Source: Azolla caroliniana
Lineage: Eukaryota > Plantae > Polypodiophyta
Direction of reading: 5' to 3'
DNA length: 64,000 bases
Assembly: GCA_043228905.1 (NCBI GenBank)
Contig: JBHGNT010000002.1
Span: forward strand, 23,684,001 to 23,748,000
Position numbers and translations under genes: made by a program. Of this stretch, positions 11,052 through 48,957 are shown in pieces. The notes beneath the pieces were generated by a model. It ran no database searches and was not told the origin of the DNA. It was given only the letters and a program-made list of their open reading frames with translations. Each line of letters begins with the position of its first letter. Position 1 is the first letter of the stretch.

Positions 11052-12343
11052 TGTCGTGAAGATCCGTCACTACGTGTGGATCGTGAAGCGGAACCGTCGG
11101 GGTTCTGGACTAGAAGGATTTAAAGTTTGCACTAGCTTTGGCGAGAAAGTATTTAAGAGAGATTGAGAGAGATTGATATGACGAAAGAGAAATATTGAGA
11201 TCAAGATTGAACTTTTAACTTTTAGATTTAAGAGAGAATATACATCAACAATAGGATTACAAGTTTCTTATTTTTCCCAAATTTTTCATTAGTTTTTCCT
11301 TGCTTGATTCCTCCACTCTTTTATAGATGCCCCCATGCATATGCTGCATGTGAGCGTGTAAGACATGCGTGTAATGCATGCTTGCCATGTCATCATCTAA
11401 GCTCTCGTGTATGAGAATTACAAGTAAAAGTATAATGATAAAATTATAGCTTTTAAGAAAATGACTCGGCTTAGTGGTAAGTCTATTGCCTCCTATCTTG
11501 GAGGTGTAAGGTTCAAGCCTTGCCCACATCCCTTCTAAAACACAAAATACTACTTTTGGTCTTATATTTAACACCGATAATCTTCAAAACACCATGCACT
11601 GCAATCAACTGACCATGTAATCATCTAAGCTCTCATGTATGAGAATTACATGTAAAACTATAATGATAAAATTATAATTTTTTAAGAAAATGACTTGGCT
11701 TAGTGGTAAGTCTATTGCCCCTTATCTTGGAGGTGCAAGGTTCAAGCCTTGCTCATATCCCTTTTAAAACACAAAATACTACTTATGGTCTTGTATTTAC
11801 ACCGAAAATCTTCAAAATACCATGCACTGCGATCAACCGACCGGTTCAATCCAATCTCGATCTGATCTTGTCCGTCGCCATCCGGTCCCGATCTTGGTCG
11901 TCGGTTGCCATCTCGCCGGATTTGTCCGGTCACCCAAAACCTTTACAAGTAGTTAGGCCACACCCATTCATCTAGTTAGTTTAGCTCAAGTCACCTTGAA
12001 CATTCTATGATCCACTCATAAACACAAAGTAATAGATTTTGGCCCTGCTTATATAATTTGGGATCCTTATTTATTCTGTCTATGTGGGATATCTCATAGC
12101 TTTGTTTTTTCTCTTCTTCTTCACAAACTTCATACCCACATAACTTGCCACTTAGTTGACCGTTTCTTGTGTGGTAAAGTGTATTCGAAAGCTCTTGAAG
12201 ACCTCCTTCTTTTTGTACCAAGATATTAAACTAGTATAAAATAGTATATTCACTATTATTGTTTTATGTTGTGTGTGAAGAACCACACTTGATTTTGTAC
12301 ATTTCATGCAATTTTCACACCGTTGCCGAAAATCTTCACGACA
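11052..12343 (-). mobile_element. Solo LTR (1292 bp) of the same lineage as the 52748-57840 element, with an internal ~229-bp tandem duplication
   Basis: Perfect 12-bp terminal inverted repeat tgtcgtgaagat/atcttcacgaca. 4-bp TSD atga (11048-11051)/acga (12344-12347). The motif gcggaaccgtcggggttctggactag matches gcgggaccacgggggtcttggactag at 52780 and 57102. TATA-like ctataaaag on the minus strand at ~11326. Confidence 0.85.
11465..11530 (+). promoter_or_regulatory. tRNA-like Pol III A-box/B-box cassette inside the solo LTR (second copy ~11694-11760)
   Basis: A-box-like ggcttagtggtaag and B-box-like ggttcaagcc with tRNA-like spacing. Not a complete cloverleaf. Confidence 0.55.
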
Positions 12344-12892
12344 ACGATCTACATGAAGGATGTGGAGCCCCACTCCAACCCTATTTGTTCAACTCACTCT
12401 CCCACGTCCTCTCTTTCCATGGATGTTGCAAGTGATTGTGTCTCGTGTACAAAAAAAAAAACACAATTATTTTGAAAGTAATAGCTCAATAAAATGGGTC
12501 ACAAGCTTTCCATCATGAGAAGGAACACACCTTTCAAATTCAGAAGACACCCCATCACTCTCTCATCAAAGACAATTTGTTGACCAACATTATCCTTTGA
12601 TTTAGGTAAATTAGTTTATCAAGAGGTTGAGGGCATCCCATATTGCCTCTTGTTGAGCTTTCACATATTTATTTGTATGGAGAAATTTTAAGAGTTGGCT
12701 TAAGTTACGAGCATCTCAAAACTAGTAGAAATTCATGCATCATATATTTCAATCTTCATTCCTTCTGACTAGTTTAACAAAGATTTTGTGATTTGAATAG
12801 TATTGGAGTATGAAGTTTGGTTTGTAGTTATCAGAGCTCAATAAATGCCTTTTTTAGTTTTATTTTACTAGTGGGAAATCAAAGTAAGGAGT

Positions 12893-13029
12893 ATCGGGGA
12901 TAGTAGTAGAGGCCAAGACAATTAGTACTAAGGATAGAGGAGAAGAATGAGGATTAGCAACGTCGGTCTTAAGTCTCCTAGTTGTTCTTGTATCTTTCTT
13001 CATATAATATAATATACTTCTTGTTGTCA

Positions 13030-13095
<66 letters not shown>

Positions 13096-13188
13096 TTCTC
13101 ACACACTCTTTCCCTTCTTAGTACTAATCCTCATTCTTCTCCTCTATCTTTAATACTAATTCTCCTTACCTCTAGTACTATCCTTGAT
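12893..13188. repeat. Inverted repeat with ~65-bp arms (12893-12956 / 13125-13188) enclosing a (CT)n microsatellite (13033-13091)
   Basis: tagtactaaggatagaggagaagaatgaggattag pairs with ctaatcctcattcttctcctctatctttaatacta. Confidence 0.8.
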
Positions 13189-15299
13189 AGTTTGAACCGA
13201 ATTGGTTCTCAATAATGTCATGTGCCTCTTTTTATAGTGTGCTTAGGAGTACTCGTGACATTTCTAAATTGCTCCAAAGAAATCTAGAATATACATGGAT
13301 TTCCTAAGTAATATAATAAATTAAAAGAATATTTTTTATGTTACAATGTATAGCTTATTTGTAGGGCTTCAACCCCTATGACACAATGTCATAGGTTCAA
13401 AACCTTTGAAGCCATACCATGCTATATCATGATAAGGAGAAAACCTAAAGAAAAGTATACAAATGTCGATTAGACACTAAAGAGCTTAGAAGCACTCAAA
13501 GTAAATAGTGTAAATTTGCAATGTGATGTCTTTAAGTTATAGAAAATCAAACAGAGATTGCTTGAGGGATTGCTTAAAGATGCTAACTTCATGTAGTTGG
13601 TTTTGATCGAAGTCCTTACGGGCCGTCTAAATGGTCCAAAGTGCCCAAAATCTTGTCCATTGGAGAAAATGGGCTTTGTTGGATAGGGCGCATGGAATAT
13701 GTCCAAATAGCCAAAAGTGCTTCCCAAACCTTCATCCATGAAATGTGGGAGAAAGCTCAATAATTGACTACTTCATGTATCTTGTATTTTTTCTTAACAC
13801 GCAATCCATATAAAGAAGCTCGAGTACAAAGTTATTGCTATAGCATTATGGGCAGTGGTACTAAATAAACCAATGGTATATGAACAAGAGGATGTTGTAG
13901 ATACTCTTGCTACGAGATATTGTCTGATGCAAAAAACATGTATACATCCAAATCAACAAACACAGATTGATCAACTTGAAATATGGCAATGAGTAAGTAA
14001 TATCACAATTTGGTATATTTGGAAGGTGAGATGTTTGAAGGTATTCCAAATTGTGACTGAATGACCTAGCTAAATAATTTATGGTATATTGGACAAGGAA
14101 GGTGCATAATCTCAGAGGTTCTTTGAATAACATAAAAAGTAATATGCAACAGGCAGAGCTACAATGATTGGAGTTTCATGCCATATGGGACAAAGGAATA
14201 TTTTATAGACGGCTTTCTGATAAGGTGGTGTGGTTCTACTCCACCGAAGTATTTATTTAAGTTGACAATTAAAACTTCATTACCTAAATGTACATATTTT
14301 ATGCATAGCCTTAGGGCATTTCTCAATACTGATGTATTATCTGTTCTGGAAGAAAAAAGTTATCAAAGCTATTGTAGTGCATCAAATCTCTTCGTGTGCA
14401 ACTTCAAAATGTATAGATCCTTTTCTAGTCCATCTTGAGGAAGTTTCTTGCGAATTTTCATTCAACCTCATTGCTAGCTTCCATGGTTTAATGGTTTTGG
14501 GTCTCCCTTAGTGAAACCTAAATCCTCAAATTGAGGGCCCTTCTATTTTGAAGTTCTGATTCATTTGATCATGCTCTAGTTTCAAGTTCTATCTTCAATT
14601 AATAGTATTTTGCCAAGTTCTATTAGATTCTTTATGTCAATCTCTATTTTGATTCTTGTTCATGATTCTTCATTTGTCCTATTTCATATTCACGTGATTG
14701 CTCATGATTTGATTCTTGGCCTCTTTGACCTCATTCTTAACCTATGTCTCAATATCATATTGCCTCTGTACTTGTTTTTAATGACACCGATGGGGCACAT
14801 TCATATGTTGAGTCCTCAATTCTCTATAGCTTTTACCACAACTTTGTTGGCCTTTCGTTGTCATCATAATTATGGGTACGTGAAGGCCGTGGAACCATGG
14901 GGGATTTGAACCAAGAGAGAAAGGTGACATGATGGCATGGTACACATAAATTGTTTGTTTTTATGTGCAAATGACTCTTTAGCAAGGTCGTGATTAGAAG
15001 TGTTTTAAAAAATGGTTGTCAGGCAACAAGCTAACAAAAAACCAATTGGATTCACAAATACGAACTTGTGTTTACAAGGATTAAAGTTCAAATCGTTGAA
15101 CGTATCCATAAAATAGATCCTAACAAAACTTTGTGATTTTTTATCTCACAACTACAAGAAATAAATTTGTTAATGTAAAACCCATGAAAAGGACTTCCAT
15201 TATAAACCTTGCTCGCAAGAGAGAGCTCAAGAAATCTATCATGAGACATATAAAATTAGATACAGTGGGGATGTGTTTGCCAAAAGGGAGTGGAGTAGG

Positions 15300-17525
15300 G
15301 CAAAATAACAAAAGAAAAATAGAATGAGAGGATCTCAACTTGATGTTTTTATTAATAGTTTAATAAAAGATAGAGAGCTCGAAGTTAAAATACCTTAGCC
15401 TTTTGTAGGCTATTGGCATTTTACCATTATGCAGTATGAAAGGACAAAGAGGGGTACACTCATTACAAAGTTTTCAAGTTAAATATTGGGACATTTAGAG
15501 CCTAACTAATCCAAAATTATGTGTTGTTGATTACAAACTATCTAGGTACCTAAGGATCTCCTAGTTACATAACACAACTCCATTGGCTATTTTTATAAAT
15601 GGATAACACCTAGCATGTTCATGAGAAAACTTATTTAAAGGTTGATCTACAAGTTCCTTAACATGCCATTATGTGCCTTATCCATATCTATGTTTTTCCT
15701 CATCCATTGATATTTTCTCACTTGTCTAAACTAGGCATGAAGATCAATCGACTTTGCATGACATGGTGATCGCTCAACTCTTGACTAATAAATATTGACT
15801 TCAACGCAAGTATCACTCGACTACCTATTACTCAATTATTAGCTTGAATAAATTGTTGGCAATCACTCTACTCTCCTGTCACATCTTTGTCATAAGTTAT
15901 TATATGAGCAAATTTTCTTGCCTCATTCTTCAATTGCCCTCTCTTTCATTGATTGCATTATTAGAGGTGACATCCCAATGGTAGTAACAAATTTCATTGG
16001 GGGTGGATCCACCGAAGCAATGATAGCCTAATGGCCACAACATCCCAAATTGTGGATCCACCACCAATGAAATAGTGGAAAACTTCAAATATATTGGGCT
16101 TTAGGTTCCTTCCAATCACAAATTGAATGAATAGGGTACCCATTGCTTAGTAGGAAAGAGTGTTTATTATGCATTTTAGAACATATAAAATGATGATGTT
16201 GGGTTCTGAATAAATAATACTTTCATATTTTGTGCTTCCCTTCAAGGGTGGATGCATGTGACCATTAACATCCATAAGTTTGCTTAAAAAGGGTTTGAAA
16301 AATGTCCAAAAGCACTTTCTCACAAAGTTTCTTAAAGTCAAGCTACAAATACCATACATGTGTTTGCCAAAAAATTTGAGTAGAGACAAGAACAAGTGTA
16401 CATGTATCTCGAGATGCATCGTTGAGGGTGCATCATGATATTCAAAAAGTTTTTTTTTTTTTACCTTAGACAATTTAGAGACAAAAACCTTTCTATTACG
16501 GTAGAGTGGGTCGTTAGCAATGTAAAAGGTTCCTTTTGAGGATGAAATGTTTATGGCATTTGTTCCGGATTCAACTCTAACCCAAAATGTTCTAAAATAA
16601 CTATCTTCAAGGTGCTTTCCTTGAAGTTGTTCATACAGACTAGATTTAATTTTAGTGAAGCTAAACATGAGCTTCATGTATATTATTTGATACATCAATG
16701 AGTGTGTTCGTGAATCCTTTACGATATTGTATAGAAAAGTCAAAGTCTTGAATGAGTTCTACCCATTTTGCCTTACGACTCGTGAGGTCTTGTTGGTCAC
16801 AAAAATATTTTTTAAGAGAAGTGAAGGAGCCTAGCAAACATGTTCTATAAGTGTTGTAAATGACTCATCTAGATGATCATTCTAAGGTATCAAAATTGTA
16901 GACTTACATGTTTAGCCTTTTAAAAGGTTCACGACGTTGTCAATTGGGAGTATTTACGAATAGATTGTTGCAAAAAACCCACAAAACCTAAAAATGAACA
17001 TAGCTCTCAAACGGTTTGAGGAATCAATCATAGTTTGACTTTCTCTATTCAAGAATGATCAATTTGCACACCTCATTCAACGATTAAATGTTCAAGATAA
17101 ACAATTGACTTATTGAAAAAAATTCACATTTTGCTAGCTTGGCATAAAAAATTTCGTCTCATAAAGTTTGACGAAAAAACATGTTTATCTTGTTCATCTA
17201 GTGTTTGGCTATAAATATGAATATCATCCAAGAATACAACAATGAATTGCTTGAGTTGATCTCGAAACATATCATTCATTTATTGTTCGAATGTGGTTGG
17301 GGCATAATTAGAAACTCGTAATGGCCATAACACATACGAAATGTTGTTTTTGGAATATCATTTTCGGCAATTCGAATATGGTGATGGCAAGTTCCCAAAT
17401 CAACCTTTGAAAAGTATTTATCTCCTTGTAGACGATCTATCAAATCATCTATTCGAGGCAAGGAATAATTATTTCAGATTGTGACTTTATTCAAACAATG
17501 ATAGTTAATACATAGTCACCAATTG
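15300..17525 (-). mobile_element. Decayed Ty3/gypsy pol (RT-RNaseH-integrase) remnant
   Basis: ORF 17276-17461, [21 protein letters not shown]...[17 protein letters not shown], is a canonical gypsy RT. Downstream fragments resemble the integrase zinc-finger region (EYHDAP) and carry many stops. The left boundary is approximate. Confidence 0.75.
16180..16390 (+). mobile_element. Short fragment of the non-L1 LINE family, inside the gypsy remnant
   Basis: gtttgaaaaatgtccaaaagcactttctcacaaagtttcttaaagtcaag matches the reverse complement of ~48095-48145 (FENVQKHFLTKFLQVK). Confidence 0.6.
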
Positions 17526-19189: not shown

Positions 19190-19550
19190 ACCATATAGTA
19201 AGACAAGGAACTGATAAGCAGAAACTTGTCGGACATAGAGATGCCCATATACAATTGCCTAGAAAGCATACCCATGACAAAAGAGATAGATATGGGTATA
19301 TAGAAAGAAAGCACACAAGAATTGATAAGTGGAAGTTTGTCAGACATGTATAGAAGAGATGCATGGATACGAGTGCGTACAAAGCGTACCTACGACAAAA
19401 GAGATAGATGGGTATATAGAAAGAAAGAAGCACATGAGAATCTATAAGTGAAAGTCAATCGGGCATGTGTAGAAGAGATGGCCGGATACGCGTGGCAAAA
19501 AAGTGTGCCCAAGACAAAAGAGATAGATATGGGTATATAGAAAGAAGCAT
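19190..19550. repeat. ~117-bp tandem repeat (3 copies; a fourth partial copy resumes at 20100)
   Basis: gacaaaagaga...gggtatatagaaaga at ~19276, 19394, 19513 and 20100. Confidence 0.8.
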
Positions 19551-20099: not shown

Positions 20100-20577
20100 G
20101 ACAAAAGAGTGATGGATGGGTATGTATATATGTGTATGTACAGAAAGAAGATGCAATGAGGAGTCAAGACGCCCATAAGACCAAAGCCAGGACAAAACCA
20201 CCCATAATAAGACCACACCCAAAGTCATAGTACGTAATATACTCGAATGCATTGGCAAACATTCTTTTTTCCCATACGAATGAAAAACGAACGCGCATGT
20301 TATAAAAAATATTCTTATGTTTTTATTTATTTATTTACAATTATTTACCTTAACTTTCTTAGTACCTTAAATAAAATGATTTCTTATAATAAAGAATGAA
20401 TACAAAAAGTATGGTATTGAGTGTTGACCATACTTCGAGAGGGTGTTTAACATACGCGAATGATAGAAAGAAGGGTAGAGAATGCGAATGCACGAATGAT
20501 TCGGACTATGCAGGCCAAGTAGTAAAAGGATGAGCCAAGAATGAAGAAATGGGCAGAAGAAGAAACAAAGAAACACA

Positions 20578-23500
20578 ATGAACACCATCATCCCTTCTTC
20601 CTTCTCTTCCTCTTCCTCTTCCTCCCTCTTCTTCTTCAACAGTGGCAGCTATGGCAGGATTCGAACTCGACCCATTCCCCCTGCACTCTCATCGACGCAT
20701 CAAACCCTCTCTTCTCCCCTCACAGACACCTCGCAGATACAGCAAAAGCTTGAATCTTTCCACTCATGGCTCTATGACAAAGGCGTCTTGTCTGAGAAAA
20801 ATAGCATTGTTAAACCTAAGATTTGTGATGTTCCTTCTTCCCCTCAGAGACTAGGTCTTTTTGCTCACAAAAGATCTATTTCCGAAGGTGAAGAAACTCT
20901 CAGTGTCCCTCAAGAGCTATGGATGAGTGTCGCTGTTTCTCATTCTTCCCTAGAAATTGGTTCTTTTTGTCGCAATTGCCGGCCGTGGGTTGCTCTTGCA
21001 CTTTTCCTTCTCTTTGAGAAGAATAAAAAGAGCTCGTCGGTTTGGTGTGCTTATATAGACATTCTTCCGCCCACACTTGATTCACCCCTTTTCTGGTATA
21101 TTTAATTCTGTTATGGATGAATACATATTTTTTGTTGTTTCAATCTTTGTTGAAGTATTATAGTTTGAATCCATCTTTGCTTGAATCGGTGTTTGTCATG
21201 ATTTATGGTTGAATCAATGTTTTCTTCTCATGTTTTAGATTTAATCAATCCTTATTTGGAATCCCATGTTTCTTACCATGTTGTAGATTGAAACAAACCT
21301 TGTTTTAATGAATTCCATATTTTTGCATCCAACTTTGGCACAATGTTATGGTTGAATGAATGATTCTTATCATGTTATGGTTGAATCAATCTTTGGTTAT
21401 CATCCTATGATAGCATCAATGTTTGTTACGATGTTATGGCTGAAAATAGCTATCTTTTCTGTAGGATATCAATGGAAACTCATGATTCATAGGATTTAAT
21501 GTGAAAATGGTTGGAATATCATCTTAAGGACTAGTTTATGGGGGAATCTACTTGTCTACCTAATAATATCATTCAAAGTTTGCATTGAGATGCCATATAT
21601 GTGAAATATCTTCCGAATTCACTGATATGTTTTCCAGAAAGGAATTCACAATGTCTTTTTTTCTCTCCATGGCAGGTCTGAAGAAGAATTGATGGAGATT
21701 GAAGGTATGTTTTTTGATCTTCTAATGGCTAGTTTCTTTATAACTAGTTGACAAATTTCAACTTATCAAATTATCTGATGCCGATAATCAATGCTCGTTA
21801 AATAGGTACCCAAATAATTGGATCAATTTTAGGTTATCGGCAACATGTAGAAAGTGAGTACAGGAAACTCCTTGAAGAGACGATACTTCCGAATCCGGGG
21901 CTTTTTGATGAATCGGTTTTCACACTTGAGGCCTTCTTGTGGGCATTTGGTATTCTACGATCTCGAACTTTTCCTCCTCTAACCGGAGATGACTTAGCTT
22001 TGGTTCCTTTAGCAGATCTCGTAAAGATTCCAATCTCAAATCCCTGGTGTTGAGTGGTTTCGTGATATTTTTTAAGTAGGAATTTCTTATTATAAATGTA
22101 CTCTCCTAATAAATTTAGGAATGTTATGGAGAAGTATGAAATTTCTGGTAAAATTTATTATTAATTTGATATAATATGCATTATAAAAAATAAAAATAAA
22201 CATTTGACGATATTAAGAAGAATCAAGCTTTAGAAAGGTTCACTGCATGTTTAAAATGTATTTCCTACCTTTTTTTTGGGCCACTCTAATTTTTATGTTT
22301 ACTTAATTTGTGAAGGTGAATCATGGAATGGTTGTTAACATGGAAGGGCCGAGTTGGGAAAAGAAAAGTTCTGGTTTCTTCCCTCGACGGGAATATTTAT
22401 CGTTGCGTGCACCAAAAGCTATCAAAGAAGGAGAGCAGGTGCTCAAAACATTCGAAGTTCTATGCAATCAGATGAATGAATTTACATGGTTTTGAGTTTT
22501 ATGTATGTACATATGTACGTATGTGAAGGAGAGCATATTGTTCTGAGTTTCTTGGGAAACTCTCTATCTTCTTCATCATATGTAATATATATGATTGCAT
22601 GTTGTAGATTTTGGAAGCTTGCATTGTTCTATCAGCAGAGAAACATGAAATACCTCTGAGTTTCTCTTTATTACCCCAAATGCACCTAAGTGTTCATTAC
22701 TTCCCCATCATGCCCTTTGTCAACACCCTCTCGAGCAATTATATACTATTTGAGCAACTATTATGTGGTCAATTAATCCCCTTTTTCTCAAATATGTGTT
22801 GTCTGATTCAAATCCCCATTTTTCTCTCTTTCAGAGGTTGACAAGGGACAGTTGAGGGAAAAAGAAATCAGGGGTGTTTTGTGGTTTTCCCCATCTATGT
22901 CATTAAATCTGTTTATATTCAATATATGGGCATATGATTTTTACTTTGTATACATGAAATTGCTTATAGACCTTTCCAAAATAATTGTCCAGAAACAGAT
23001 CAGAAACAGATTATATTTATGCATTCACAGTCTTAAGTATAGAATGTGTATGCAGTTGGTAATGCAGTATGGAAAAAACAAGAGCAATGGGCAACTAGCC
23101 TTGGATTATGGATTTGTTGAGTGCAGCTCAATGAAAAGTGCTGTTAGAGATAGTTTCATGCTAACTTTGGAAATACCTGAGTCCGATCGCTTTTATGGAG
23201 ATAAGCTGGATATTGCTGAACTGAATGGGCTTGATACTACAGTTTATTTTGACCTAATCTATGGGGAAGGATTACCAGAAAATATGCTTCCATATCTCAG
23301 GTTGATTGCGCTTAATGGACCTGATGCCTTTCTACTTGAGGCACTATTCCGAAATTCGGTGTGGGATCATCTTCAATTACCTATAAGCCAGGAGAATGAA
23401 GAAGCAGTATGCAATATGATATTAGAGGGCTGCAATTCTGCCTTATCTGGGTATCCTACCTCGATCAATGAGGTTATAATTTCCTTATCATTTGAAAATC

Positions 23501-25035
23501 TTGTTTTTTAGAAATGTATCTATATATATGTACACGTCTATGTGCATATATACGCACATACATAGATATATATACATATACGTACATACATACCTACACA
23601 CAAATATACATATATGTATTATATGTTAGTGTATGAACGCATATGTGTGCAAGTGTGTCTTTATTTATGTGCGCCATTAGCCTTATATTTTATGTGGATG
23701 TGTACATATGTATATAATGTGTAGGGATGTATACCTGTGCACCGACAGTCCTATTTTTCAAATGCACTATAGTCAACCTATTTCAGACACATCGTACATT
23801 TAGGTTTTCCCTCGATCAATATGCACATCATACAATGCCTCTAAAGATAGTCCTCTTCTGATGTATATTTCTTCAAAATTTTCTGTTCAGAATGCCCTAT
23901 ATAATTACCTGTTGATAATTTCTTCATGATCATGTTCAATTGTTTCACCTTGCGTTGAGGTTTTATAATAATTAATATAATGTATTACAAAAACAGAAAA
24001 GTGCATGTGTCTGTGTGTACATATAAATTTCCCTTTCCATCTATTATGTTTCAGGATTTGCGCTTATTAGAAAGTGGTAATCTGGATACTCGGACCGAAA
24101 TGGCTGTTTCTATCAGGCTTGGAGAGAAAAGAGCTTTAGGGGAGCTGCAATTGATTTTTGAAAATCAGAAAGCAAAACTAACCCAGCTTGAATATTATGC
24201 CACAAGGAGGTTGCGCACTTTGGGCCTGCTTGATGACAAAGGCGATATGACCCCTTGGGTAAGTATATGCTTACAGCATTCCATGTTATGTATTAAACTT
24301 GTTAGCTTTTCATTTGTTCTCCAAATAATCCTATTGGGAGAACCATAACAAAGTCATGATGATCATACCATGCATTTATTAGAAAATTATTGGATTTTTT
24401 TATATAACTAGAATGTAGGAGTTTTCTACTGGTCTTTGCTACTTTTAGGCAAAGATATTTCAGAGTAGAATCATGTGAGTGTTATTTTTCGCCTCTTGAA
24501 ACCACGTGTCCCAAATAACTGAATTGTAGATAACCATCCTTCCATACAGTGCTCTATACCAAATTCACGATCTAAAAATGCCAACATCTAAGCAAACCAT
24601 GACTGAGTTTGGGGAAAATACAATAATGAACATTTATTGCTAGATTGCTATTTTTTGTGGACTTTCAGAAACTTTATGATTATTTTTTACTAGTAATGTT
24701 CACTAAACATAAGCTAAAAGTTTGTGGAATTTGGAGATGGTAGCCAAATGTTCTTTCTGTGATTTAAGAGTTTCATAACCTACTACTATATTCACCCTAT
24801 CATACATTGTGCTGAGGGAATGTTCCAAAAAGTTATTAGCCTATGTAATGAAACTATCCATACCACAAATTCCTCAAACATGTCTGAGCATTTCTCTCAA
24901 ACATTTGCCATGAAATCTCTTTGGTTTCTTGTCGAAATTTTCTAGGACCTTACCTTATTTTTGTAATACAAGGGATGAAATGATTTAATTATCTAATTGT
25001 GGATTTAATCTTGTTAACAGGTATTTGAGGGCTAA
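20578..25035 (+). CDS. LSMT: Plastid SET-domain lysine N-methyltransferase (Rubisco LSMT / FBA-lysine methyltransferase family); 7 exons, ~506 aa
   Basis: Exons: 20578-21095, 21676-21704, 21806-22020, 22316-22438, 23056-23472, 24055-24258, 25021-25035. All GT-AG and in phase; total 1521 nt. Ser-rich transit peptide, SET motifs (WAFGILRSRTF, LVPLADLVNH, QYGKNKSNGQLALDYGF) and the Rubisco-LSMT substrate-binding domain (LPYLRL...DAFLLEALFRN). Confidence 0.93.
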
Positions 25036-25037
25036 AT

Positions 25038-27449: not shown

Positions 27450-30400
27450 TGTTGGGAATTTGGTCCCTTCGGATGGGATCCAGATGAGAACCGGAGGAGT
27501 TGGATTAGACAAGCCGGAGGAAGGAATTGAACCGGATGGATATGGTTGGTATCCGACCAAAGATTAGTATACGTATATATATTCCGATCTCACTGTTCGA
27601 GGTCATATTTATAAATAACCCAAAGTTATATAAGTATAAATATAACTAGGGGAATACTGTTATAGCATTGGTATTATTATTGTGTGTGTGTCGTATAGAG
27701 AGAGAGAGAGATCCTAGATGGATGTAGCTCAGTTGGTAAGGTTGCCCAATGGAGACTAGGTGGTCATGGGTTCAACCCCTACATTCCATGAGTCAAGAGA
27801 TATATATGAAGTATATAATAGAGAGAAGTGAGAAAATTGGGTTTCAAACCCAAGACGCAGTGCTTGTAGTGTTAACAACTTACCAGGTAATTATGAGAGA
27901 GAGAGAAAACTTTTTTTGTTGTAACCGCATGTTGGTGAAGATACAGAACTCGAGGTCGGTGCCTCTGAGTCTCATTCTATTTGGTTTTCCCGATTAGGGT
28001 TTTCCATGTTAACATATGGTGTCATCTCTTCTATCTTGTGAAGTGCATTGCTATTTTCGGTTTATTTCTTCCATCGTGTGTTTGAGACTTGGTTGTGGCC
28101 GAACAATATTACTATCAATCTGGTATCAGAGCGAACAACATAAAAAAAAAAAAAAAATAAAAATAAAAATGGAAGAGTCATTTGGTCGCATGTTCAAGCT
28201 CACCGGCTCCAACCACCTAGTGTGGAAGTTGAAGATGAGGGACATGTTAGTGGTAAAAGATCTGTGGTTGTCGGTACAGTTTGGGGACAAAAGACCAGAT
28301 AAGATCGATGCCGCGACCTAGGAGGTAATGCACATGAAAACGACGTCATACATTCAATGCTTCGTTGACATGAGCTTGTACAATAACTTGAATGAAGAGA
28401 ACAAGGACAATGAGCTCTAGGAGAAGATTGACACGATGTTGGAGAACAAGAACACCGTAAATCAGACTACCTCGCTCAAAGTACCATTAGCCGACGAGGT
28501 ACTTGCTTTGTTGTTACTCGGATCCCTTCCGAATAGTTGCGAGATGCTGGTTGTCACGTTGGGCAACGCTGGACCGTAAGGGAAGACTTATCCCCGGCAA
28601 GAGTTAAATTGAGCTTGCTGAATGAAGAAGCTCGCCAGAAGGACTGGGAGTTTTGAACTGATCCAAATGCCTTGGTTACAGAAGACGACAATAATCGGGG
28701 AAGAGGCCGGAATCGAAGTCCCCAGAACTGGGAGAAGTCAGGGACGAGGTCGAAGTCAAGGGGGAGGCCCACATGCTTCTACTGTGGGAAACCGGGGCAC
28801 TTCTAGAAGAATTGCCAACACTTTTGGAAGGAGAAAGGAACTGGCAATGTCGACTCGAAGAAGGGTCCGCACCGGAGGAGTTCGGATCGGAAAGGAACAA
28901 CGACAATCACGAAAAGCGAAGAGGAATTGCTCATGATCACCGAGGAGAGCGAGCTACACCTTGTCAACAATGAGACGTGATGGGTTGTCGATTCCGGAGC
29001 GTCGTTCCATCTGACCCCCGACCGGAAGTGCTTCTAATGATGAAGGCTACATAGGTAGCATCCAGAATGGAGTCATGAAGTTCAACAAAGGAAGCATGAT
29101 CGTGGCTCGAGCCCAAAAGATCGACACATTGTACCTGATGCATGCCCGGATATACCGGGAGGAAGTAAATGTGGTATCCGACATTGCCGGTGAGCTATGA
29201 CACAAGAGGTTGTGTCACACGAGCCAGAAAGGGATGTAGAGACTTGCCAAAGATAACCGCATTCTGGAGGTGAAAGACGTGCAACTTGAGAGGTGCATTG
29301 ACTCTTTGGTTGGCAAGCAAAACCGAATCTCTTTCCGGGCAAGAGGATCGATGAGATAGAATGCACTGTTGGAACTTGTGCATACCGATGTATGCCAAGT
29401 GGACACGAAGTCACATGTTGGGTCATTGTACTTCGTGACGTTCATAGATGACCACAACCAGAAGCTGTGGGTCTCACCGCTTAAGACAAAGGACCAAGTA
29501 TTATCCGTCTTCAAGGAATTCCACACGAGAGTGGAAAGGGAAACCGACTGGAAGCTGAAGGCGGTTCGAGCGGACAACGAAGGCGAATACCGGGGGTAGT
29601 TCGAGGAGTACTGCTGGTCGAAGGGTCTCCGGCTTGAATTCACTGGAGGTGAACGAATTGGCCGAGAGGATGAACCATACTGTGATGGAGAGAGTCCGGA
29701 GCATGCTGGCACATGCAAAGTTGCCCAAGAAGTTTTGGGCTGAGGAGCTGATGACAACAACATACGTGATAAACAGATCCCCATAGAGAGTATAGACCCG
29801 TAAAGACGTGTCTTACTGGCATCTGAAGGTGTTCTGTTGTCTTGCTCATGTGCATGTAGCAAAGGACAAGAGAGAGAAATTGGATCCGAAGTCCCGACCA
29901 TGCATATTCCTTGGATATGGTGATCATGAGTTCGGCTATCGACTGTGGGACTTGGTTGACAAGAAGGTCTTCTGGAGTCGAGACATAGTCTTCATGGAAG
30001 ACAAGACCATTTCCGATTGGGAGTCAGAGAAGAAGATAACGGACTCTAGATCGACCAACAGAGATCAGTTAAAGGAGATAAGGACCCACACGGCCGGAAG
30101 CCGTATGACACTCAATGAATTGGCCGGATTCGGATTCAGAACCGATCCGACCGAAGAAGAATTAGACACCGGAACCGAACAAGACCCAAAATTGGATTCT
30201 GATGAAGAACAGATGGAGGAATTAGTTGTCGAAAACCAAGGACGAAGATACCCCCTTAGGGAAAGAAAAGCTCCCCAGAGATTTTTGGATGAAGAGATAA
30301 TATTGTTGATGGACGAGGCGGAGCCAGAAAGTTTCGAAGAAGCAAAGAAAGACACCCACACCCACAAGTGGTTAAGTGCCATGCAGGATGAGATCGATTC

Positions 30401-34302: not shown

Positions 34303-36290
34303 TGTTGTGATAATGCGGTGCGTCTGCTACTAGAGTGGGACCACATGGGTCTTGGACTAGGGAGGTCACAAGGGCTTAAAGGGCGCGGATGATGGAACCT
34401 GGACTTGAAGGATCCTCGGACTCGAAGGCAACGCATACTCAAACAGAGTACACAGTCAAAGGGAGCGTAGAGTCGAGGGCAGCCCATAGTCGAATGGAGC
34501 GTAGAGTCTAAGGCTCAAAGTTGAGGGGAGCCTAGAGTCGAAGGCTCAAAGTCGAGAAGAGCCCAAAGTTGAAGACTCTTAAGACTCCAAGGCTCTTCTC
34601 TCGCAAAGGGAGTGGCGACTTGTATGATGTTTAACACGTGATTAGGATCGAAACATGCGGTTAAAGAAATGCACGCAAAAACGGGTCACCTGAAATAAGT
34701 CATCTTCTCCTCTTTTTATAGAGAAAAATGGTGCCTAATTTCGAGATTAAATGCGCTTATTCGAAAAAGAAAAAGGAATAAATAATCCTTAATCTGTGCC
34801 ATGTTGTTAAAGATTTAAACTCTACACCTACTTCGAGCCTCGTAAATAACTCAAACCACTAGGCTATTCACCGTAACTATAATTATTTTTTATATTTATA
34901 ATATTTGTGTTATTGCGTGTAGAACTTCCCATTTTTCCCTTTCTACCTTTGACCATGCCACATCACAACATCCACCCCCACCAAACTGCACATCCTTCGG
35001 CATATGCCATGAAAACGTGGTGATTGTCAAGAACAAAGGTAGTTAGTCAAATTTGTTCCTCCATTTTGAGGATGTCTTCTCTCTCCACCTGAACCACCTT
35101 CGCCATGTTATCCAGCATACGATTCATCTACACTTTGTACCACCACGACCAATTGTTGTGGCTTCGTCCACTTTTCCCGAGCATAACCCTTTGTGCACCA
35201 CACATGTGCCAACCTCATTCCGACCTTGCGTCTTCCGTCAATCCGCTCTTGCCTTTGTTAGGCCCCATCTGAAAATTGACATCGACTACTCCTTGTAGCC
35301 CCTTCTTCAAGTACATGCTCACATTTAGGCCCTTAGATGAACACATTGCATATTTCTCGTTTCACCCTTTTTCATGGTATCCTCTCCCATTACAGTTGAC
35401 CACAGTTTCCTTCATCTTCGTGCTAGGGTCCTCCGTTGAGTTGGATGTCTCACATCCTGAGGAACACCCTTCAAATTCATCCGACCCACTTGACCCACTT
35501 TGCTTTGCCTCTTCATCATTTACATCTACTTTGACCTTTGTCTCCTCGCCGCCACCTTACTTCTCTTGGGTCTTACATCAGTTCCTGGTCATAATTGCCC
35601 TAGTCTCAAGAACTAGTGGGGAAGATGTCTCGATGTGTTTGTCGTCTTCTTTTGCCGTGTTGTCCATAACCACCTCTGTCTTGGTGTCATTGTCCGTGGC
35701 TATGACTTCAAATGCATAGGCCTCACATTGTGCTCTTTGACCATGCAAGATTCGATTATGCTTGCCTCTTCGTCGCATCAGGTTTCAAACACAACACATT
35801 GTGAAACACTCATCCACTCTCAGGGTGGTGTTTTTCGCTCTCATGTTATCGACCTTATCCTTAGATATCGTTTCGTCGCAAGACAAGAAGATGGCATGTT
35901 CCACACCTTCTCTATGGTACCGTCGTTGTACCGTACCTTGGCTTTTGTATCGATCGCATCATTTGTCTGCATTTGTCGAGAGGTGACTTTCTCCTCTTCC
36001 ACTTTAGTTTCAACTTGTACCTTTAAGCTCTCATAAGCCTCCCTTATGAAGGCTTTCATGTTGAGTACTGTAGTACTTTTTCGTATCGAGCTCTCTTCAT
36101 TAGGTGGTTGTGGGTAAACTTGTCTTGTCGTCCTCTGACCATCAATAGTGAGTTCTGTTATCGTTTTCCTTCCATCATGTCGTTGGCATACTCTTCCCAC
36201 TTTCGTCCAATCTTTGGCGAGCCCATTTGCACCATCGTCATCCTCGAGTTGGACTCTGATGGCTTGTGTTACCATGGCATTAAATAACAT
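34303..36290 (-). mobile_element. 5'-truncated, decayed relative of the 52748-57840 element: gag remnant, PPT and 3' LTR
   Basis: LTR 34303-34970 has a 9-bp TIR tgttgtgat/atcacaaca and the motif gtgggaccacatgggtcttggactaggga. PPT ggtgggggtgga at 34971-34982 (minus). The gag fragment LEDDDGANGLAKDWTKVGRVCQ matches LEDDDGANGLTEDWSKVRRVCQ at ~56500. Confidence 0.8.
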
Positions 36291-43689: not shown

Positions 43690-43950
43690 TATCCTTTTGA
43701 TGAACTTTGAAAGAGAAAGCTTCATTACTAGGGTATTACTTTCAGTGAAATAAAATGTGTAAAGAAACAATGTCACTTATTGGTGAAGGTTGGCCTCTAC
43801 ACTATCTTATCATCATCCCCTCCCAAGTTTTCTACTTGAGCTATGCTTAATTAGTTTACAATTTTACCACTTGAGCTATGCTTACTTATTATGTATCTTT
43901 TATTCCTAACATTTTCTTCTAGTAATATGTTGTCTCGATTCTCAACCGAA

Positions 43951-45180
43951 TGTAAGACTCGACTTTTATAGTCAATCCTCCCTTCACCCCCACCACAATA
44001 CGACAACAGAAAGGCTCGAGTGGGTGCAATCTATTAGGAATATGGGACTGAATCGGGATGATTTAGACTTCCAACACAATTAACAATGAATGAAACCACA
44101 AGAAGAAAATGAGAGTACACCAAAATTTTTAACGTGGAAAACCCAAAATAGGGAAAAACCACGGGAACTGTAGGTTCCAAACAACTTTACCATGATCTGA
44201 GTACAACGGAATACAACCTCTCTAGGTTTTCACTAGAAGAATGTATCTACCTCAAGGCGATGACCTTGGTTACAACCTTCACCCAATTGGGTGGATAGAA
44301 TAACAAAGATTACAAACTGAGTACAACCTCTCTAGGTTTGGACTAAAGGAAATGTACTAGCCTCAAGGTAACAACCTTGGCTACAATCTTCACCTGATTG
44401 GGTGGATAAAACAACAAAGATTACAACTGAGTACAACCTCTCTAGATTTTGACTAGAGAAACTTACAAACCTCAAGGCAATAGCCTTGGCTACACAATAG
44501 TGAGTACAACTAAGTATGGACTCTCTAGGTTTTGATTAGAGAAAATGTACTAGCCTCAAGGCAACAACCTTGGCTACAATCTTCACCCGATCAGATGGAT
44601 ACAACAACAATAAGCACAACTGAGTGTAGTCTCTCTAGGTTTTTGACTAGAGGAAATATATTAACCTCAAGTCAACAAACTTGGCTACAATCCTCACCCG
44701 ATTGGGTGGATAAACCAACAAGCAATAACCTAGATTACAATTCCTCACCCAACTGGGTGGATAGAAAAAAAACTAGCAAAAATGGAAACAAGAAAAACAC
44801 AAAACGAAGAAACCTGATGCAAGTAGACAGGATAGGTGTTGTTCAATCGTGGTTCTCTAATAGCACGAACAACCCCTCGCAGGTCTTTGTCTCCGCTTTG
44901 GTAGAACACTCTTCCTCTTGCTCTCAGTCTTTCGTTTTCTTTTTTTCTCTCTCAGTTTTTTTGTTTTTGCTTTGTGTTCTTAGAAAATTAGGTCACACTC
45001 GGTTTTCTCCTTCTCTTTATATGTTTTCTCCTTGTAGTCCAACGTCTATATACCTATGTTCACACACACACACACACACAAAAGACACACACCAAGGAAA
45101 AACAACATACAAAGAAAAGGGCATGTATATATATATATATATGAATATAATTATAAACTTCATAACTTTTCTCCTTTTTT
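43951..45180 (-). mobile_element. Probable copia-type 3' LTR with PPT, containing ~110-bp tandem repeats (44195-44760)
   Basis: LTR-typical ttttaacgtggaaaaccc...gggaaaaaccacg (44127-44163). Purine tract aaaaaaggagaaaa on the minus strand at ~45166-45180. ctctctag units at 44218, 44328, 44437, 44521 and 44631. Boundaries are approximate. Confidence 0.5.
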
Positions 45181-47167
45181 GGCCCTAAGCCAAATTCGGT
45201 TCTCAACCGACTTTCAATCGGCCCTTCGGCTCTCAACTGGCTCCATGTTGTGGGCTCCACTTGAGTGGATAGGCCTAGATTGGGAGTGTTAGATGGTCAT
45301 GGCGCTACTATAGTACCATCATTTGTGAAATATTGCTTAAGGGGCCAAGCTATATATCATAAGGTGACTCCTATTATTTCATCTTTAGAACTCTCACAAG
45401 TTGCAATTGTTTCTTGGTTGGATAAAATGGTTGTGATCATGCTTTCTTGCTTTGGTCATGCTAAAGGGATGAAGATAAATAACTAATATCCAAGTAACCT
45501 TCTTTAGGAAACTCTCTTAATAACTATTAACTTTAATATTAAATGACATCATTAAGTACATTAATATGCTAATAGTTTTAACTTAAATGCTTAATCACTT
45601 GGGAATTAAACTTACAATGAATTCATCTAGAGATCACACAAGAGTATTACCGACCAAGTTTTACATTCCTCAATTGTTAGCATACACACACTCACTCAAA
45701 CTTTCATTTGTTAACCATTAGAATACACACATCCACTCAAACTCATGATTATATTCCAAGTATAAAATTAGCATCAAGAGATTATCATAAACTATTGAGA
45801 GAGATTAGGGAGCTCAGGCTCAAAAGAGAGATAGATAGATTCTATTATCGTCTTTGGAGGTCAAATATGATCTATGAGACCAAAAATATTGCATTTCACG
45901 TTATACGTGTAAAAGTGAGTAGTGACTCAATGTTTGAGAACTTTACCAATGAATGTTGCAATCAAGAGTGTACATTGTGGTTGTGAGAGAAATTTGTACA
46001 AGGATTGGGCTTGGTCAAAGATGTGTGGAAAGCATGGTCAAATATGATAAAAGGTAGAGCATTGTATCAAAGTGTGATACTCATAGTGTGCAAAGTGTGC
46101 ATAGTCGACCACTCTCATCACTTGTGTCCCAATGCCCCATCTCACATCGCAATCCATGTGAGCTAAGTCGCATGGAAGCAATGGTTCGAATGGCAGACAA
46201 CGAGATGGGCTCTAATATGTATCATTGTGTATGGTTTCCCTGTTCCACGAAGATATGGTTTTGTAGTTAGGTGCAACATATGTAGTATAATGTGTGAACC
46301 GTGAGCCTCCACATTTTTCCCATGTCATGATACATTGGCATTGCAAAGGCCTCATTTACAGAGGAATCTACTGATGCATCATGAAGCAAATGTGTTGCAT
46401 CCCATCTTCCAAACCAGTTTTTCATATATTGTATCCAACTGATGTTGTGATATTTTCAACATGTAGTGTGAAACCACCTTAGAAAGAAATAAAATAGTAG
46501 TTCAAAAAAACTAATATAGCGAAGTCAACTTTGTTCGTAACAAAAATACTTTTCTCAATTGTCAAAGAGCTTGCCTTATGGATGAAAGGCCATAAATGAT
46601 GAGTGGATATAAAGTTAGAGGCGGTTTCAAAAGTAGAAAAAAGGCAGAGAAAAAAAAGTGGAAAAAAACAAGGCATGGATATGAAGATCTAGGTAGAGAA
46701 AAAAGCTCATAATGTATTCGCCCGATATCTAAATTCAAAAAGGGTTTAGGGTTTCCAAAAATATCTTGCATGTGAAATTTGAGATTACAAAAGAGAAATA
46801 GTAAAAAAAAAAAAAGCCTCACATAGACTAAAGCTTTAAGGATTTGAATAAGAGTGGATTACTAGCACAAACGGGGGTAGGGGGACAAGAAGATGCGGAA
46901 GCTCTAAGGATTTGAAAGGTGGAAGAAGAGGGATCTCAACCAAGAAGAGCGTGAGGCTTCAACATCAAGCGGATGCAACGAAGTCATCGGTTGTTGGGGG
47001 ACCTCATCAACATCAAGGATTTCTCTCTTTTATGCTCTAGTAATTTCTCTTCTCCATCCCTCTTCCCCCTTGTGAACTATCTTCCTTGTTTCAACGCATT
47101 GTAACTTGAATCTTATTTTAACTCTTGTTTTGTGATTAAGTGTTGTTTTCTTTTAGCTATCGTTATC

Positions 47168-47835
47168 CGTGTCTTGTGCGTGTAACTTCCTCTTGTGCAT
47201 TAGTTCGTCTTGTGACTAGGGGTTGACTCAGGCTTGCCCATGTGCTTCTCCTTTTCACAAAGTTGTTCGAACATTCATGTCTTGTGCGTGTAACTTCTTC
47301 ACTTGTGTTAGTTTGTCTTATGACTAGGGGTTAATTCGGGCTTGCCCATGCACTTCTCCTTTTCACAAAGGCATTCGAACATTTGTGTCTTGTGTGTGTA
47401 ACTTCCTCTCGTGCATTAGTTTATCTTGTGACTAGGGGTTGATTCAGGCTTGCCCATGAGCTTCTCCTTTGCACAAAAGCATTTGAACATTCCTATCTTG
47501 TGCGTGTAACTTCCTCTCGTGTGTTAGTTCGTCTTGTGACTAGGGGTTGATTTGGGCTTGCTCATGTGCTTCTCATTTTCACAAAGGCGTTTGAACATTC
47601 ATGTCTTGTGTGTAAGCCCTCCTCTCGTGCGTTAGTTCGTCTTTTGACTAGGGGTTGATTTGGGCTTGCCCATGCGCTTCTCCTTTTCACAAAGGCATTC
47701 AACATATGTGTATTTTGTGTAAGCCTTCCTCTTGTACGTTTGTTCGTCTTGTGACTTAGGGTTGATTCGGGCATGCCCATGCACCTCCCCTTTTCACAAA
47801 AAGTTCAAACATTCATGTCGTGTTTGCGTAAGCCC
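47168..47835. repeat. 108-bp tandem repeat array (~6 units) 3' of the LINE ORF
   Basis: gactaggggtt at 47214, 47322, 47430, 47538, 47646 and ~47753. Confidence 0.92.
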
Positions 47836-48241
47836 TAATTCTATCCGGTCCTAAACCCTGGCGGTTCCGTCTCACGATCTACACATATTGCAGGATTTTT
47901 ACAACACTGAACACAAAATTTTATTTTTATTGTCTTTTGGATCTTTTTGCTTGCTTCCCATGCAATTTGAGGAAGTCAATGTGAGGGACTTTTTTGAGCC
48001 TTAAGCATGTATTCAACAACCCTTTCCATGGCCATGATCTCAATGGGAAGTGATCCCGTCTCAAGGTGGAGGAGGATGTATGGTGTTTGTTTCTTAACTT
48101 GTAAAAACTTTGTAAGAAAATGTTTTTGGACATTTTCAAACTCTTTCCAAGTAGATTTAGGGATATTACCACCCCATACTTCCACCCCATAGAGAAGCAC
48201 CGGTGTCACCAAAGTGTTGAAAAGGTATTTTTTGAGGATGT

Positions 48242-48957
48242 TGTCGTAGTGCATTTCGTACACTACGTGAAAAACGTATAGAGTACTAGATTGAATAAAT
48301 ATGACGAAAAACAAGAAAGTATAAAAATATATATTACATGCATAGGGCAAGATTCAAACCTTGTACCTCCATGTTCATAATTTGAAGACTTACCATTATA
48401 CTAACACATCATGAGTATTAAAGAAGTAGATATCTCACATAGAAATCTTATTTCACGCATATTTTCTAGGAAAAAGCTTTAGTTAGAAAAAAAACTATAT
48501 GTGCACATCTAGCATGCATGAACACTATAGTCGATAAAAAAAACGCATGAGGTTAGAAAAAGCATGATCATAGTCTATAGATAAATAAAGCATGGAGTCC
48601 ATAGTTAAAGAAAAGGATGAATTACTAAGCCTCTCTCATCACTATATAAGGATGGGGAGCACAATGTAATGTGTGTGGAATCTTTGGAAATTGAATATGT
48701 TTCTAAATAACGATTAATACACTATACTCGTGGGATTCACGAGTTTTTTCTATATGTAAGGGATGTTGATTCTTACTTGGGTATTATTAGGGTTAAATAT
48801 TAATAAAACTAAAAAAACTATATTTGTGGGATTCACGAATTTCTATCTCTTTCTTATAATCTATTCATATTCATAACTAAACTCATCTCAAATTCTTCCT
48901 CTTCCTAGTCCAAAACCCTAATGGTTCCCACTTGACTCACGCCCGAAAGGCATGACA
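48242..48957 (+). mobile_element. Solo LTR (716 bp) of the same lineage, inserted in the LINE RT
   Basis: Termini tgtcgt...atgaca; degenerate 4-bp TSD atgt/acgc. Removing the LTR and one TSD copy restores the LINE frame IKCCVLKKYLF. The family motif ctagtccaaaaccctaatggttccc lies near the 3' end, TATA-like ctatataag at ~48642, and a tRNA-like cassette at 48340-48405 (minus). Confidence 0.8.

Follow-up and report, generated by a model that had tools for sequence, protein, structure and literature searches.

An antisense tRNA-shaped cassette retained in the U3 of a plant LTR retrotransposon family: a possible docking site for TFIIIC next to the Pol II promoter

Why should the LTRs of a retrotransposon carry, upstream of their own TATA box and pointing the other way, what looks like a tRNA-type Pol III promoter? 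The question is raised by a 64-kb stretch of Azolla caroliniana DNA (hereafter the window), in which three tRNA-shaped A-box/B-box cassettes lie antisense in the U3 of two solo LTRs. LTR1 (11052..12343, minus strand, 1292 bp) belongs to a Phygy-like Ty3/gypsy family; its 4-bp flanks, ATGA/ACGA, correspond to an NCGN target duplication with one CpG-type change. A 229-bp tandem duplication in its U3 (11385..11842, two units, 90.9% identity over 231 nt) doubles the cassette. Cassettes A (11460..11533, plus strand; A box 11467-11477 with one mismatch, B box 11510-11519) and B (11689..11762, plus strand; A box 11696-11706 and B box 11739-11748, both identical to the consensus) are accordingly 229 bp apart; the first T4 run after A is at 11554-11557 and that of B at 11762-11765. 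LTR2 (48242..48957, plus strand, 716 bp) is a diverged solo LTR with 4-bp flanks ATGT/ACGC, and it splits a LINE-like reading frame which resumes on its other side. It contains cassette C (48340..48410, minus strand), with a consensus A box (48393-48403) and a B box (48351-48360) in which C56 is replaced by T in the window copy; among contigs related to cassette C, C56 is intact in 58-66% of the depth. The TATA-like boxes of the presumed Pol II promoters are at 11319..11325 (minus strand) in LTR1, where the motif is one that recurs in family loci, and at 48643..48649 (plus strand) in LTR2. The places (A boxes starting at 11467(+), 11696(+) and 48403(-)), the doubling, the LTR strands and the antisense position upstream of the TATA box are all as originally predicted. 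The kinship of the two LTRs, also predicted, holds insofar as they are of the same family, but it is distant, a single 24-nt match at U5 being all that blastn returns.

The tRNA-like character of the cassettes was assessed in several ways. When both strands of the window were scanned with a strict generic A+B pattern, which tolerates C or T at B-box position 56, three matches were found (11696, 48403 and 27725) against none in 20 shuffles; with one A-box mismatch permitted there were four, against a shuffle mean of 0.25. The match at 27725 is unrelated to the family cassettes. Cassettes A and C align without a gap, with a score of 46 (300 shuffles: mean 16.9, sd 3.1, maximum 28); one letter of the 10-mer that they have in common, at position 48388, is a minority allele in LTR2-like contigs, a different letter accounting for 80-92% of their depth. 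Rfam scans and ARAGORN called none of the cassettes, and no 5S rRNA match appeared in the Rfam scans, the boxes being of the A/B type and not the A box, IE and C box of 5S genes. The tRNA fold is lost: pairing amounts to 25% in the acceptor stem, 58% in the anticodon stem and 82% in the T stem, and cloverleaf covariation is not above that of shuffles (0.090 versus 0.089), from which we conclude that the cassette is not a tRNA. Its tRNA shape, as predicted, is borne out by the shuffles, by the T stem and by the loop read in tRNA register, where a pyrimidine is found at 32 in 27/29 copies, T33 in 22/29 and A37 in 28/29. On the cassette strand, TATAA is present at -31 to -21 in 17/32 copies and a T4 run within 130 nt in 26/32, with a median of about 99 nt to the first T4; an upstream TATAA and a downstream T4 are the arrangement described for plant tRNA genes (PMC3082873). 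For cassette A, the TATAA at 11431..11435 (plus strand), which precedes the notional tRNA +1 by 29 nt, is a candidate TFIIIB site, albeit a weak one because its surroundings are AT-rich.

To what extent is the cassette a feature of the family? The cassette pattern retrieved 27 metagenome loci, 26 of them family LTRs (22 distinct at 95% identity) and one a true tRNA-Pro, the sole non-LTR match in the collection, which aligns in register with the cassettes. Membership of the family is indicated by an LTR end, TATA, U5, PBS or PPT motif in 23 of the 26 and by flank alignment in the other three. In all informative loci the cassette is on the same strand, antisense in U3, and in the same zone, ~160-255 bp upstream of the TATA box; the TATA-like motif of LTR1 is recognizable in 14/26 loci, or 17/26 with a looser motif. 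Spacing from A to B box is constant in 26/26, the pattern itself permitting only +/-1. Second LTRs, which had not been selected by the pattern, have the A box in all three cases that reach the cassette site; the two that are long enough both show a B-box-like core, one of them with an otherwise diverged spacer. Runs guessed to be RNA gave 0, 3 and 1 contigs, all continuing into LTR flanks. Three loci carry integrase frames (L008, L013 and L022), so that the family is not a TRIM, and two have gag-like frames (L009 and L026).

The presence of the cassette in several U3 types and in both integrase-bearing and gag-only elements goes against the idea that it is confined to one subfamily. That idea is right in one respect: LTR3 (57070..57840, minus strand), the 5' LTR of a young gag-only element (52748-57840, target duplication ACGT/ACGT), has no A/B pair, the best one in a pattern scan of this LTR showing at least four mismatches. 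The adjacent primer-binding site (57049..57065, minus strand), presumably for tRNA-Trp, is common to 5/26 cassette-bearing loci. LTR4 (34303..34971, minus strand), the 3' LTR of a related decayed element, has an A/B pair in sense orientation (A box 34856-34866, B core 34812-34820, 1 mismatch), whose homology to the family cassette is ambiguous.

Conservation has to be read with the sampling in mind, as 25 of the 29 aligned rows were pre-chosen (24 by the pattern, the rest by the match of the original prediction), which inflates it. In the loci, unselected box columns are at 0.63-0.65, the spacer at 0.65 and the flanks at 0.47-0.54: the entire ~60-bp core is conserved, and the boxes no more than the spacer. 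The prediction that the cassette is better conserved than the flanking U3 is thus supported, but the conservation is not peculiar to the boxes. Retention across unrelated flanks is clear between subfamilies, where cassettes align at z values of 8-24 and TATA-side flanks at about 0-4; LTR1-type and LTR2-type flanks do not align. Among consensus positions that were not selected for, A14, purine 15 and purine 57 are each kept in 28/29 copies and A58 in 29/29. A-box G10 is kept in just 17/29, as is B-box C56, which is T in the other 12. C56 is required for TFIIIC binding, and its frequent loss counts against a strict requirement for a promoter or insulator role. Among the 9 copies of the subfamily to which the three integrase-bearing loci belong, the C56 site reads TG in 7, CG in 1 and CA in 1, while LTR-terminal CpGs are intact at 35/51 sites; the C56 to T change was therefore probably inherited through active elements.

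Read depth and contig variation give another view. The B-box bin is the deepest of the 23 LTR2 bins in three DNA runs, its depth being 1.2-1.6 times that of the 5' terminus and 34-55 times that of the U3 bins that separate cassette and TATA box; the A-box side forms a shoulder without a depth peak, and bin 48398-48428 is at background. For cassette B, variable sites (sites varying in 12-90% of the depth) number 1/15 (X1) and 0/15 (X3) in the A box and D-loop, versus 12/33 and 15/33 in the spacer and upstream flank, a contrast with Fisher p values of 0.04 and 0.002 for sites that are not independent. The single variable site in the A box and D-loop is a permitted purine swap. Compared with the spacer alone, the A box does not differ significantly in X1 (p 0.18), and the zero count obtained for the B box is biased, since variant contigs are clipped there.

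The explanation we favour, with a probability of about 0.45, is that a tRNA or SINE head was captured once and has been kept as a docking site for TFIIIC and TFIIIB beside the Pol II promoter. A tRNA-shaped module of ~70 bp would have been taken from a tRNA gene or from the head of a SINE, in a single event, and selection would act on it as a module. TFIIIC would bind its B box, and its A box would direct TFIIIB to the cassette end that faces the Pol II TATA box, leaving ~100-200 bp between TFIIIB and that box. The Pol III product, if any, would be a short antisense RNA pointing out of the element; being antisense, the unit cannot make genomic RNA. The element might gain a stretch poor in nucleosomes and protection from heterochromatin that advances out of the flanking DNA, so that the module would keep chromatin open beside the Pol II promoter and guard the element against silencing. 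Barrier activity is described for tRNA genes bound by TFIIIC and for ETC (extra TFIIIC) sites (PMC12409998); such sites depend on the B box, may block heterochromatin with or without transcription, and are known from host loci of yeast and mammals, the LTR cassette being a putative counterpart. Since some lineages have weakened or lost the module, it would be helpful rather than essential. The frequent loss of C56, the young LTR3 without the pair, the reversed pair of LTR4 and a spacer as conserved in the loci as the unselected box columns all argue against a docking site.

A rather unlikely alternative is a neutral passenger. Here the tRNA or SINE head would have entered an ancestral U3 once and been merely inherited, and its apparent conservation would stem from template switching among subfamilies, which exchanges the flanks or re-seeds the cassette, and not from any use by Pol III factors. 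The U3 is indeed a mosaic: the TATA-side flank of L011 is that of L026 (z 19.8) and its 5'-side flank that of L018 (z 18.3), with the changeover falling at the cassette. The equal conservation of boxes and spacer, the apparent propagation of the C56 to T change and the recent replication of LTR3 without a cassette point the same way. Captures of this kind do occur, as shown by a separate, one-off tRNA-headed insertion at 27712-27895, in one LTR of a copia element of the window, and 'not a few' Repbase LTRs are stated to contain part of a tRNA (PMC10886601). A passenger, however, does not readily account for boxes that survive a diverged spacer (second LTR of L008, LTR2 type), for contig variation concentrated in the spacer, for a B-box depth on a par with LTR termini and TATA box, or for the constant spacing, within the limits of the pattern. 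The copia insertion and the lack of alignment between LTR1-type and LTR2-type flanks could also be cited, with the other orientation of the LTR4 pair, in favour of independent SINE insertions into different LTRs. We give hardly any weight to this possibility, which is largely refuted by the constancy of strand and TATA-relative zone and by the following: in the 26 loci no poly(A) accompanies the cassettes (longest A run at most 5 within 150 nt), no TSD of their own is seen (longest flanking direct repeat at most 8 nt, and at most 6 in the three window copies), no non-tRNA match (0/26 in the metagenome collection, with a narrow pattern) stands outside an LTR, and the 20 loose ends listed out of 116 all resemble the family U3. 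Neither of the signs that would have told against the prediction, TSDs belonging to the cassette or a varying position, is thus seen, and in these loci the cassette is, as predicted, built into the LTR at a constant position.

Other readings do without Pol III. The sequence might be an upstream Pol II element, or an inverted repeat acting in DNA or in the 3' U3 of genomic RNA, with the repeat arms surrounding the B box and the tRNA origin incidental. We consider this distinctly unlikely. In its favour, the B box is surrounded by an 8-bp inverted repeat whose pairing amounts to 84.6% over 30 rows; LTR3, though it lacks a B box, shows arms of weak similarity in the corresponding position (z 2.8, best of 27); the 13 nt preceding the B box are free of variable sites in contigs; and C56 to T would be tolerated. 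Against it, hairpin covariation is not above shuffles (0.164 versus 0.161), the second LTR of L008 keeps the boxes without the arms, and shuffled sequences fold as well as the genomic-RNA strand (z -0.1 and -0.9). The antisense orientation and the U3 location would be accounted for by a Ty3-type second primer site, which requires both: the 3' U3 of genomic RNA would anneal to the D and T arms of the primer tRNA and so bridge the RNA ends during minus-strand transfer. In Ty3 itself, tRNA-complementary sequence in U3 pairs with the T arm and the D arm of the element's own primer (PMC5371799), and a 3' primer site is described for Drosophila Gypsy as well (PMC1635307). As the A and B boxes are D-loop and T-loop sequences, their conservation fits this model and the Pol III one alike. 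It is, however, highly unlikely: unlike in Ty3, the cassette mismatches the primer read from the PBS, both in the T stem (3' strand CACGT for the primer, CAAGG with CCTTR for the cassette) and at the anticodon position (CTT, TCT or CCT in 23/29 rows, CCA in none), and pairing would be limited to short universal loops. Finally, the failure of Rfam and ARAGORN to call the cassettes would suit a chance resemblance to a tRNA promoter, a barely credible view in the face of the empty shuffles, the paired T stem and the true tRNA aligned in register, and one largely refuted by the in-register tRNA hallmarks.

If the cassette is a retained TFIIIC docking site, a further step would be that a lineage of coding plant LTR retrotransposons has domesticated an entire tRNA-type Pol III unit, running from an upstream TATA through A box and B box to a T-run terminator and lying back to back with the Pol II promoter, as a portable TFIIIC insulator or booster, which we regard as possible, if doubtful. 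Were it true, every new insertion would bring the unit along and seed the host genome with many barrier sites, the capture of small-RNA promoters would extend from miniature non-coding TRIMs to autonomous elements, and a captured promoter would have a new job, protecting transcription instead of driving it.

Comparison with known systems shows where the family differs. The original prediction spoke of a tRNA analogue of Cassandra, but that analogue is already described: it is Helenus, or TRIMp3 (Kojima 2024, PMC10886601), whose defining features the present element fails. Helenus elements are non-coding TRIMs of 311-1263 bp, also met with as solo LTRs, and their Pol III promoter is proposed to make the element RNA; they are proposed to have arisen when a SINE inserted into an LTR, and the plant family (Selaginella) has a 120-bp LTR and a 5-bp TSD. 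Cassette orientation is unstated in the text of that source, sense being implied by its model. In both cases a tRNA-derived LTR sequence has conserved A/B boxes and no functional fold. Here, by contrast, the LTR alone measures 0.7-1.3 kb, gag and integrase are encoded internally, target duplications are of the 4-bp NCGN type, and a conserved Pol II TATA box accompanies a cassette that is antisense and points away from the element, so that by its anatomy the Pol III promoter would not drive the element's own RNA. Cassandra likewise has a small-RNA-gene Pol III promoter inside plant LTRs, ferns included, but its elements are described as 5S-derived non-coding TRIMs whose transcript starts in the 5S portion of the 5' LTR and runs to the 3' LTR (PMC10886601, PMC10946416), whereas the boxes here are of tRNA type, antisense and followed by a nearby T run, in coding elements. 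As to the elements themselves, Phygy, a non-chromovirus Ty3/gypsy lineage described as Physcomitrella-specific (Neumann et al. 2019, PMC6317226), has the same 4-bp NCGN target preference and is tRNA-primed; the main text of that paper contains neither 'polymerase III' nor 'tRNA-like'. In the present family, no RT linked to a cassette LTR came up, one integrase C-terminal fragment gave no chromodomain match, NCGN is found at 6/9 of the non-PPT right ends listed, and relatives of the integrase, which carry rve, are found in Riccia, Calypogeia and Ceratopteris.

The three cassettes, each a tRNA-shaped module of an A box and a B box, were found where the original prediction had placed them, with A boxes starting at 11467 (+) and 11696 (+) (cassettes A and B, in LTR1, 11052-12343, minus strand) and at 48403 (-) (cassette C, in LTR2, 48242-48957, plus strand). 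In both LTRs, as had also been claimed, it runs antisense to the LTR and precedes the TATA box. LTR1 and LTR2 are solo LTRs whose flanking 4-mers nearly match, and LTR2 interrupts a LINE-like frame that reads on beyond it. A duplication (90.9% identity over 231 nt) places cassettes A and B 229 bp from each other; in all three cassettes the B-box core is 44 nt from the A-box start. Cassettes A and C align without gaps with a score of 46 (versus 16.9 ± 3.1 for 300 shuffles), and outside the cassette the likeness of LTR1 to LTR2 is small, i.e. a single 24-nt blastn match at U5. The 5' LTR of a young gag-only element (LTR3, 57070-57840, minus strand) has no A/B pair, again as had been noted. An A/B pair in sense orientation occurs in LTR4 (34303-34971, minus strand), the 3' LTR of a related decayed element; it aligns to the family cassettes both inverted (z 4.2) and colinear (z 5.0).

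The letters common to the three window copies were used as a search pattern on a metagenome collection. Of the 27 loci retrieved, one was a true tRNA-Pro (L005) and the other 26, or 22 distinct ones at 95% identity, were LTRs of the family; they come from few assemblies and their host may be the same or a related one. An LTR end, TATA, U5, PBS or PPT motif was identified in 23 of the 26 and the remaining three were placed by flank alignment. In 14 of the 26 loci the distance between cassette and TATA motif is 173-221 nt, the two being on opposite strands every time (the distance is 157 in LTR1 and 255 in LTR2). Integrase frames are present in L008, L013 and L022 and gag-like frames in L009 and L026, and L011, L019 and L020 are similar to the gag-only elements of the window. 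The loci also contain four second LTRs that the pattern had not picked, one of which stops short of the cassette site: the A box is present in all three that reach it, and a B-box-like core in both that are long enough, one with a diverged spacer. No match to the cassette, LTR end or primer tRNA was obtained in a scan of viral contigs; a genome-contig scan for a pattern-free LTR set gave three matches, in records titled as bacteria. In L016, L017 and L008, family LTRs are nested or adjoining; in those inspected, the insertion points are not at the cassette.

Conservation was assessed on the 27 loci and on contigs placed on LTR2 and on cassette B. The truncated second LTR of L017 was omitted from the alignment of cassettes, as were, being near duplicates, L020 and L025; the tRNA row, L005, was kept in pair counts and left out of column counts. 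Between subfamilies, cassettes aligned at z 8-24 and TATA-side flanks at z ~0-4, the pattern itself having fixed 21 letters. Independently of the pattern, contigs from three DNA runs (two organism labels) placed on LTR2 at 80% formed islands of depth in four places: 5' terminus, B box, TATA box and U5 motif. Of the 23 LTR2 bins, the one with the B box ranked first, its depth being 1.2-1.6 times that of the terminus and 34-55 times that of the U3 bins that separate cassette and TATA; the A-box side was a shoulder only, without a depth peak. Although depth does not measure copy number, a free SINE of far greater abundance would be expected to lift the B-box depth much further above that of the terminus. 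For cassette B, variable sites (12-90% of depth) numbered 1/15 and 0/15 in the A box and D-loop, against 12/33 and 15/33 in the spacer and upstream flank; the B-box count is not reliable, being biased by the clipping of variant contigs at that place. Among the loci, conservation was 0.63-0.65 in unselected box columns, 0.65 in the spacer and 0.47-0.54 in the flanks. The predicted conservation was borne out for the core relative to its flanks; the unselected box columns do not exceed the spacer. Within these limits the cassette is more conserved than U3.

The cassette aligns in register with the true tRNA-Pro. In this register the 29 rows keep A14 (28), purine 15 (28), pyrimidine 32 (27), T33 (22), A37 (28), purine 57 (28) and A58 (29), and 23 of them have CTT, TCT or CCT at the anticodon position. 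A working tRNA fold was rejected: the T stem is 82% paired and the acceptor stem 25%, and cloverleaf covariation is at shuffle level. ARAGORN and Rfam gave no call on the cassettes. The cassette is a tRNA relic that has retained promoter letters and lost the fold. Of 32 copies, 17 have TATAA on the cassette strand at -31 to -21, and 26 have a T4 run within 130 nt downstream; plant tRNA genes have a TATA motif at about -34 to -29 (PMC3082873). This pattern hints weakly at a tRNA-gene-like unit, the region being AT-rich and the copies related. Among runs that we guessed to be RNA, X6 gave 0 contigs on LTR2, and X10 and X19 gave 3 and 1 on cassette B, these contigs carrying no strand, start or short-RNA information. 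The idea that the palindromic B box also serves a second A box in convergent orientation was rejected for the family (best match 2.11 mismatches versus 2.24 in shuffles, 0/27 perfect). A CTAGG motif, which makes a poor second A box, lies at a varying distance (20-55 nt) past the B-box hairpin and is kept in 17 of the 26 loci L002-L027.

A tRNA analogue of Cassandra, as originally proposed, does exist, i.e. Helenus (PMC10886601), but the cassette family shares one feature with it and differs in three, namely its size and coding capacity, its TSD and the role of the promoter. The same paper states that many Repbase LTRs contain part of a tRNA, and that autonomous partners are expected not to share the tRNA-type LTR sequence. 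Among the papers listed in literature searches (subscription papers, Repbase and SINEBase aside), none was on a conserved antisense A/B module in coding plant Gypsy LTRs, and no HIV-1 U3 tRNA-like precedent was found. The cassette is real, family-wide and outside Cassandra and Helenus; it would represent a further form of the capture of a small-RNA promoter by LTR elements, with a predicted function.

The genomic RNA cannot come from the cassette, an antisense unit with a T run nearby at which it ends, and the family retains a Pol II TATA box. We tentatively view the cassette as a putative DNA docking site for TFIIIC/TFIIIB (probability about 0.45), which best fits the fixed TATA-box spacing, the retention across swapped flanks and the loss of the fold. 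TFIIIC would occupy the B box and TFIIIB would be placed on the TATA side, so that chromatin might be opened and a barrier formed at the outer edge of the element; tRNA genes and ETC sites are described as barriers in yeast and mammals (PMC12409998). Several observations count against docking: 12 of 29 rows have T in place of C56; in the subfamily that includes the integrase-bearing loci, TG is read in 7 of 9 rows, while terminal CpGs survive at 35/51 sites; G10 is retained in only 17 of 29; LTR3 moved recently without a cassette; and the LTR4 pair has the opposite orientation.

The foremost competitor, itself rather unlikely, is a neutral passenger around which the flanks recombine, as U3 is a mosaic whose parts switch at the cassette. 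A Pol II element or a hairpin is less probable still: the hairpin arms are ~85% paired but show no covariation. We give little credence to a Ty3-type U3 primer site, the T stem deduced from the PBS not matching the cassette, and slightly less to independent SINEs in separate LTRs: own TSDs, which the original prediction had named as the sign of such insertions, were not seen (flanking repeats of at most 8 nt for every cassette), and the A run beside the cassette never exceeds 5. Chance resemblance is the least credible; a strict generic A+B scan gave three matches in the window and none in 20 shuffles.

A TFIIIC site built into the LTR would offer a simple and testable explanation of how the promoters of plant LTR retrotransposons stay active in methylated, repeat-rich chromatin. 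A single genome offers natural controls, with LTRs carrying intact, C56-mutated, doubled (LTR1) or absent (LTR3) cassettes. If docking is true, tRNA-promoter capture would extend beyond Helenus-type miniatures, and cassette LTRs could spread Pol III factor sites over a fern genome; a neutral cassette would remain useful to mark lineages and to warn against errors in tRNA/SINE annotation.

The LTRs are flanked by NCGN 4-mers, a target preference that Neumann et al. describe as unique to Phygy elements (PMC6317226), and the named relatives of an integrase fragment adjoining one cassette LTR are from Riccia, Calypogeia and Ceratopteris. We provisionally call the family Phygy-like. No homologs of the window gag-like frame were found among longer proteins. 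Two host genes are represented by exons. For the LSMT-type Rubisco methyltransferase (20545-24348), one exon shows 72% identity to named proteins of the ferns Adiantum and Ceratopteris and no more than 65% to those of other named plants, which makes a fern the probable host; the exon at 9283-10275, for which a Pfam search gave no match, presumably encodes a U-box/UFD2-like protein.

Other repeats were noted. A copia 5' LTR contains, in its (GA)n tract, a 184-bp insertion (27712-27895) that is absent from the 3' LTR and occurs only once in the window. A tRNA-like head is present on the plus strand (Rfam tRNA 13.9 bits, below threshold), and the other end carries a second head, A/B-like, more decayed and on the minus strand; there is no poly(A). 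From its sequence it is a two-headed SINE- or MITE-like unit. At 47169-47906, six 108-bp tandem repeats are followed by a (+) end resembling the LTR1 U5; the stretch is probably a further LTR, one in which the U5 region is repeated. A degenerate 17-bp tandem array occupies 58176-58813, and weakly similar repeats occur in LTR4. The young gag-only element (52748-57840) has an ACGT target duplication and a 3' LTR of only ~490 bp, which lacks the TATA and a U3 part found in its 5' LTR.
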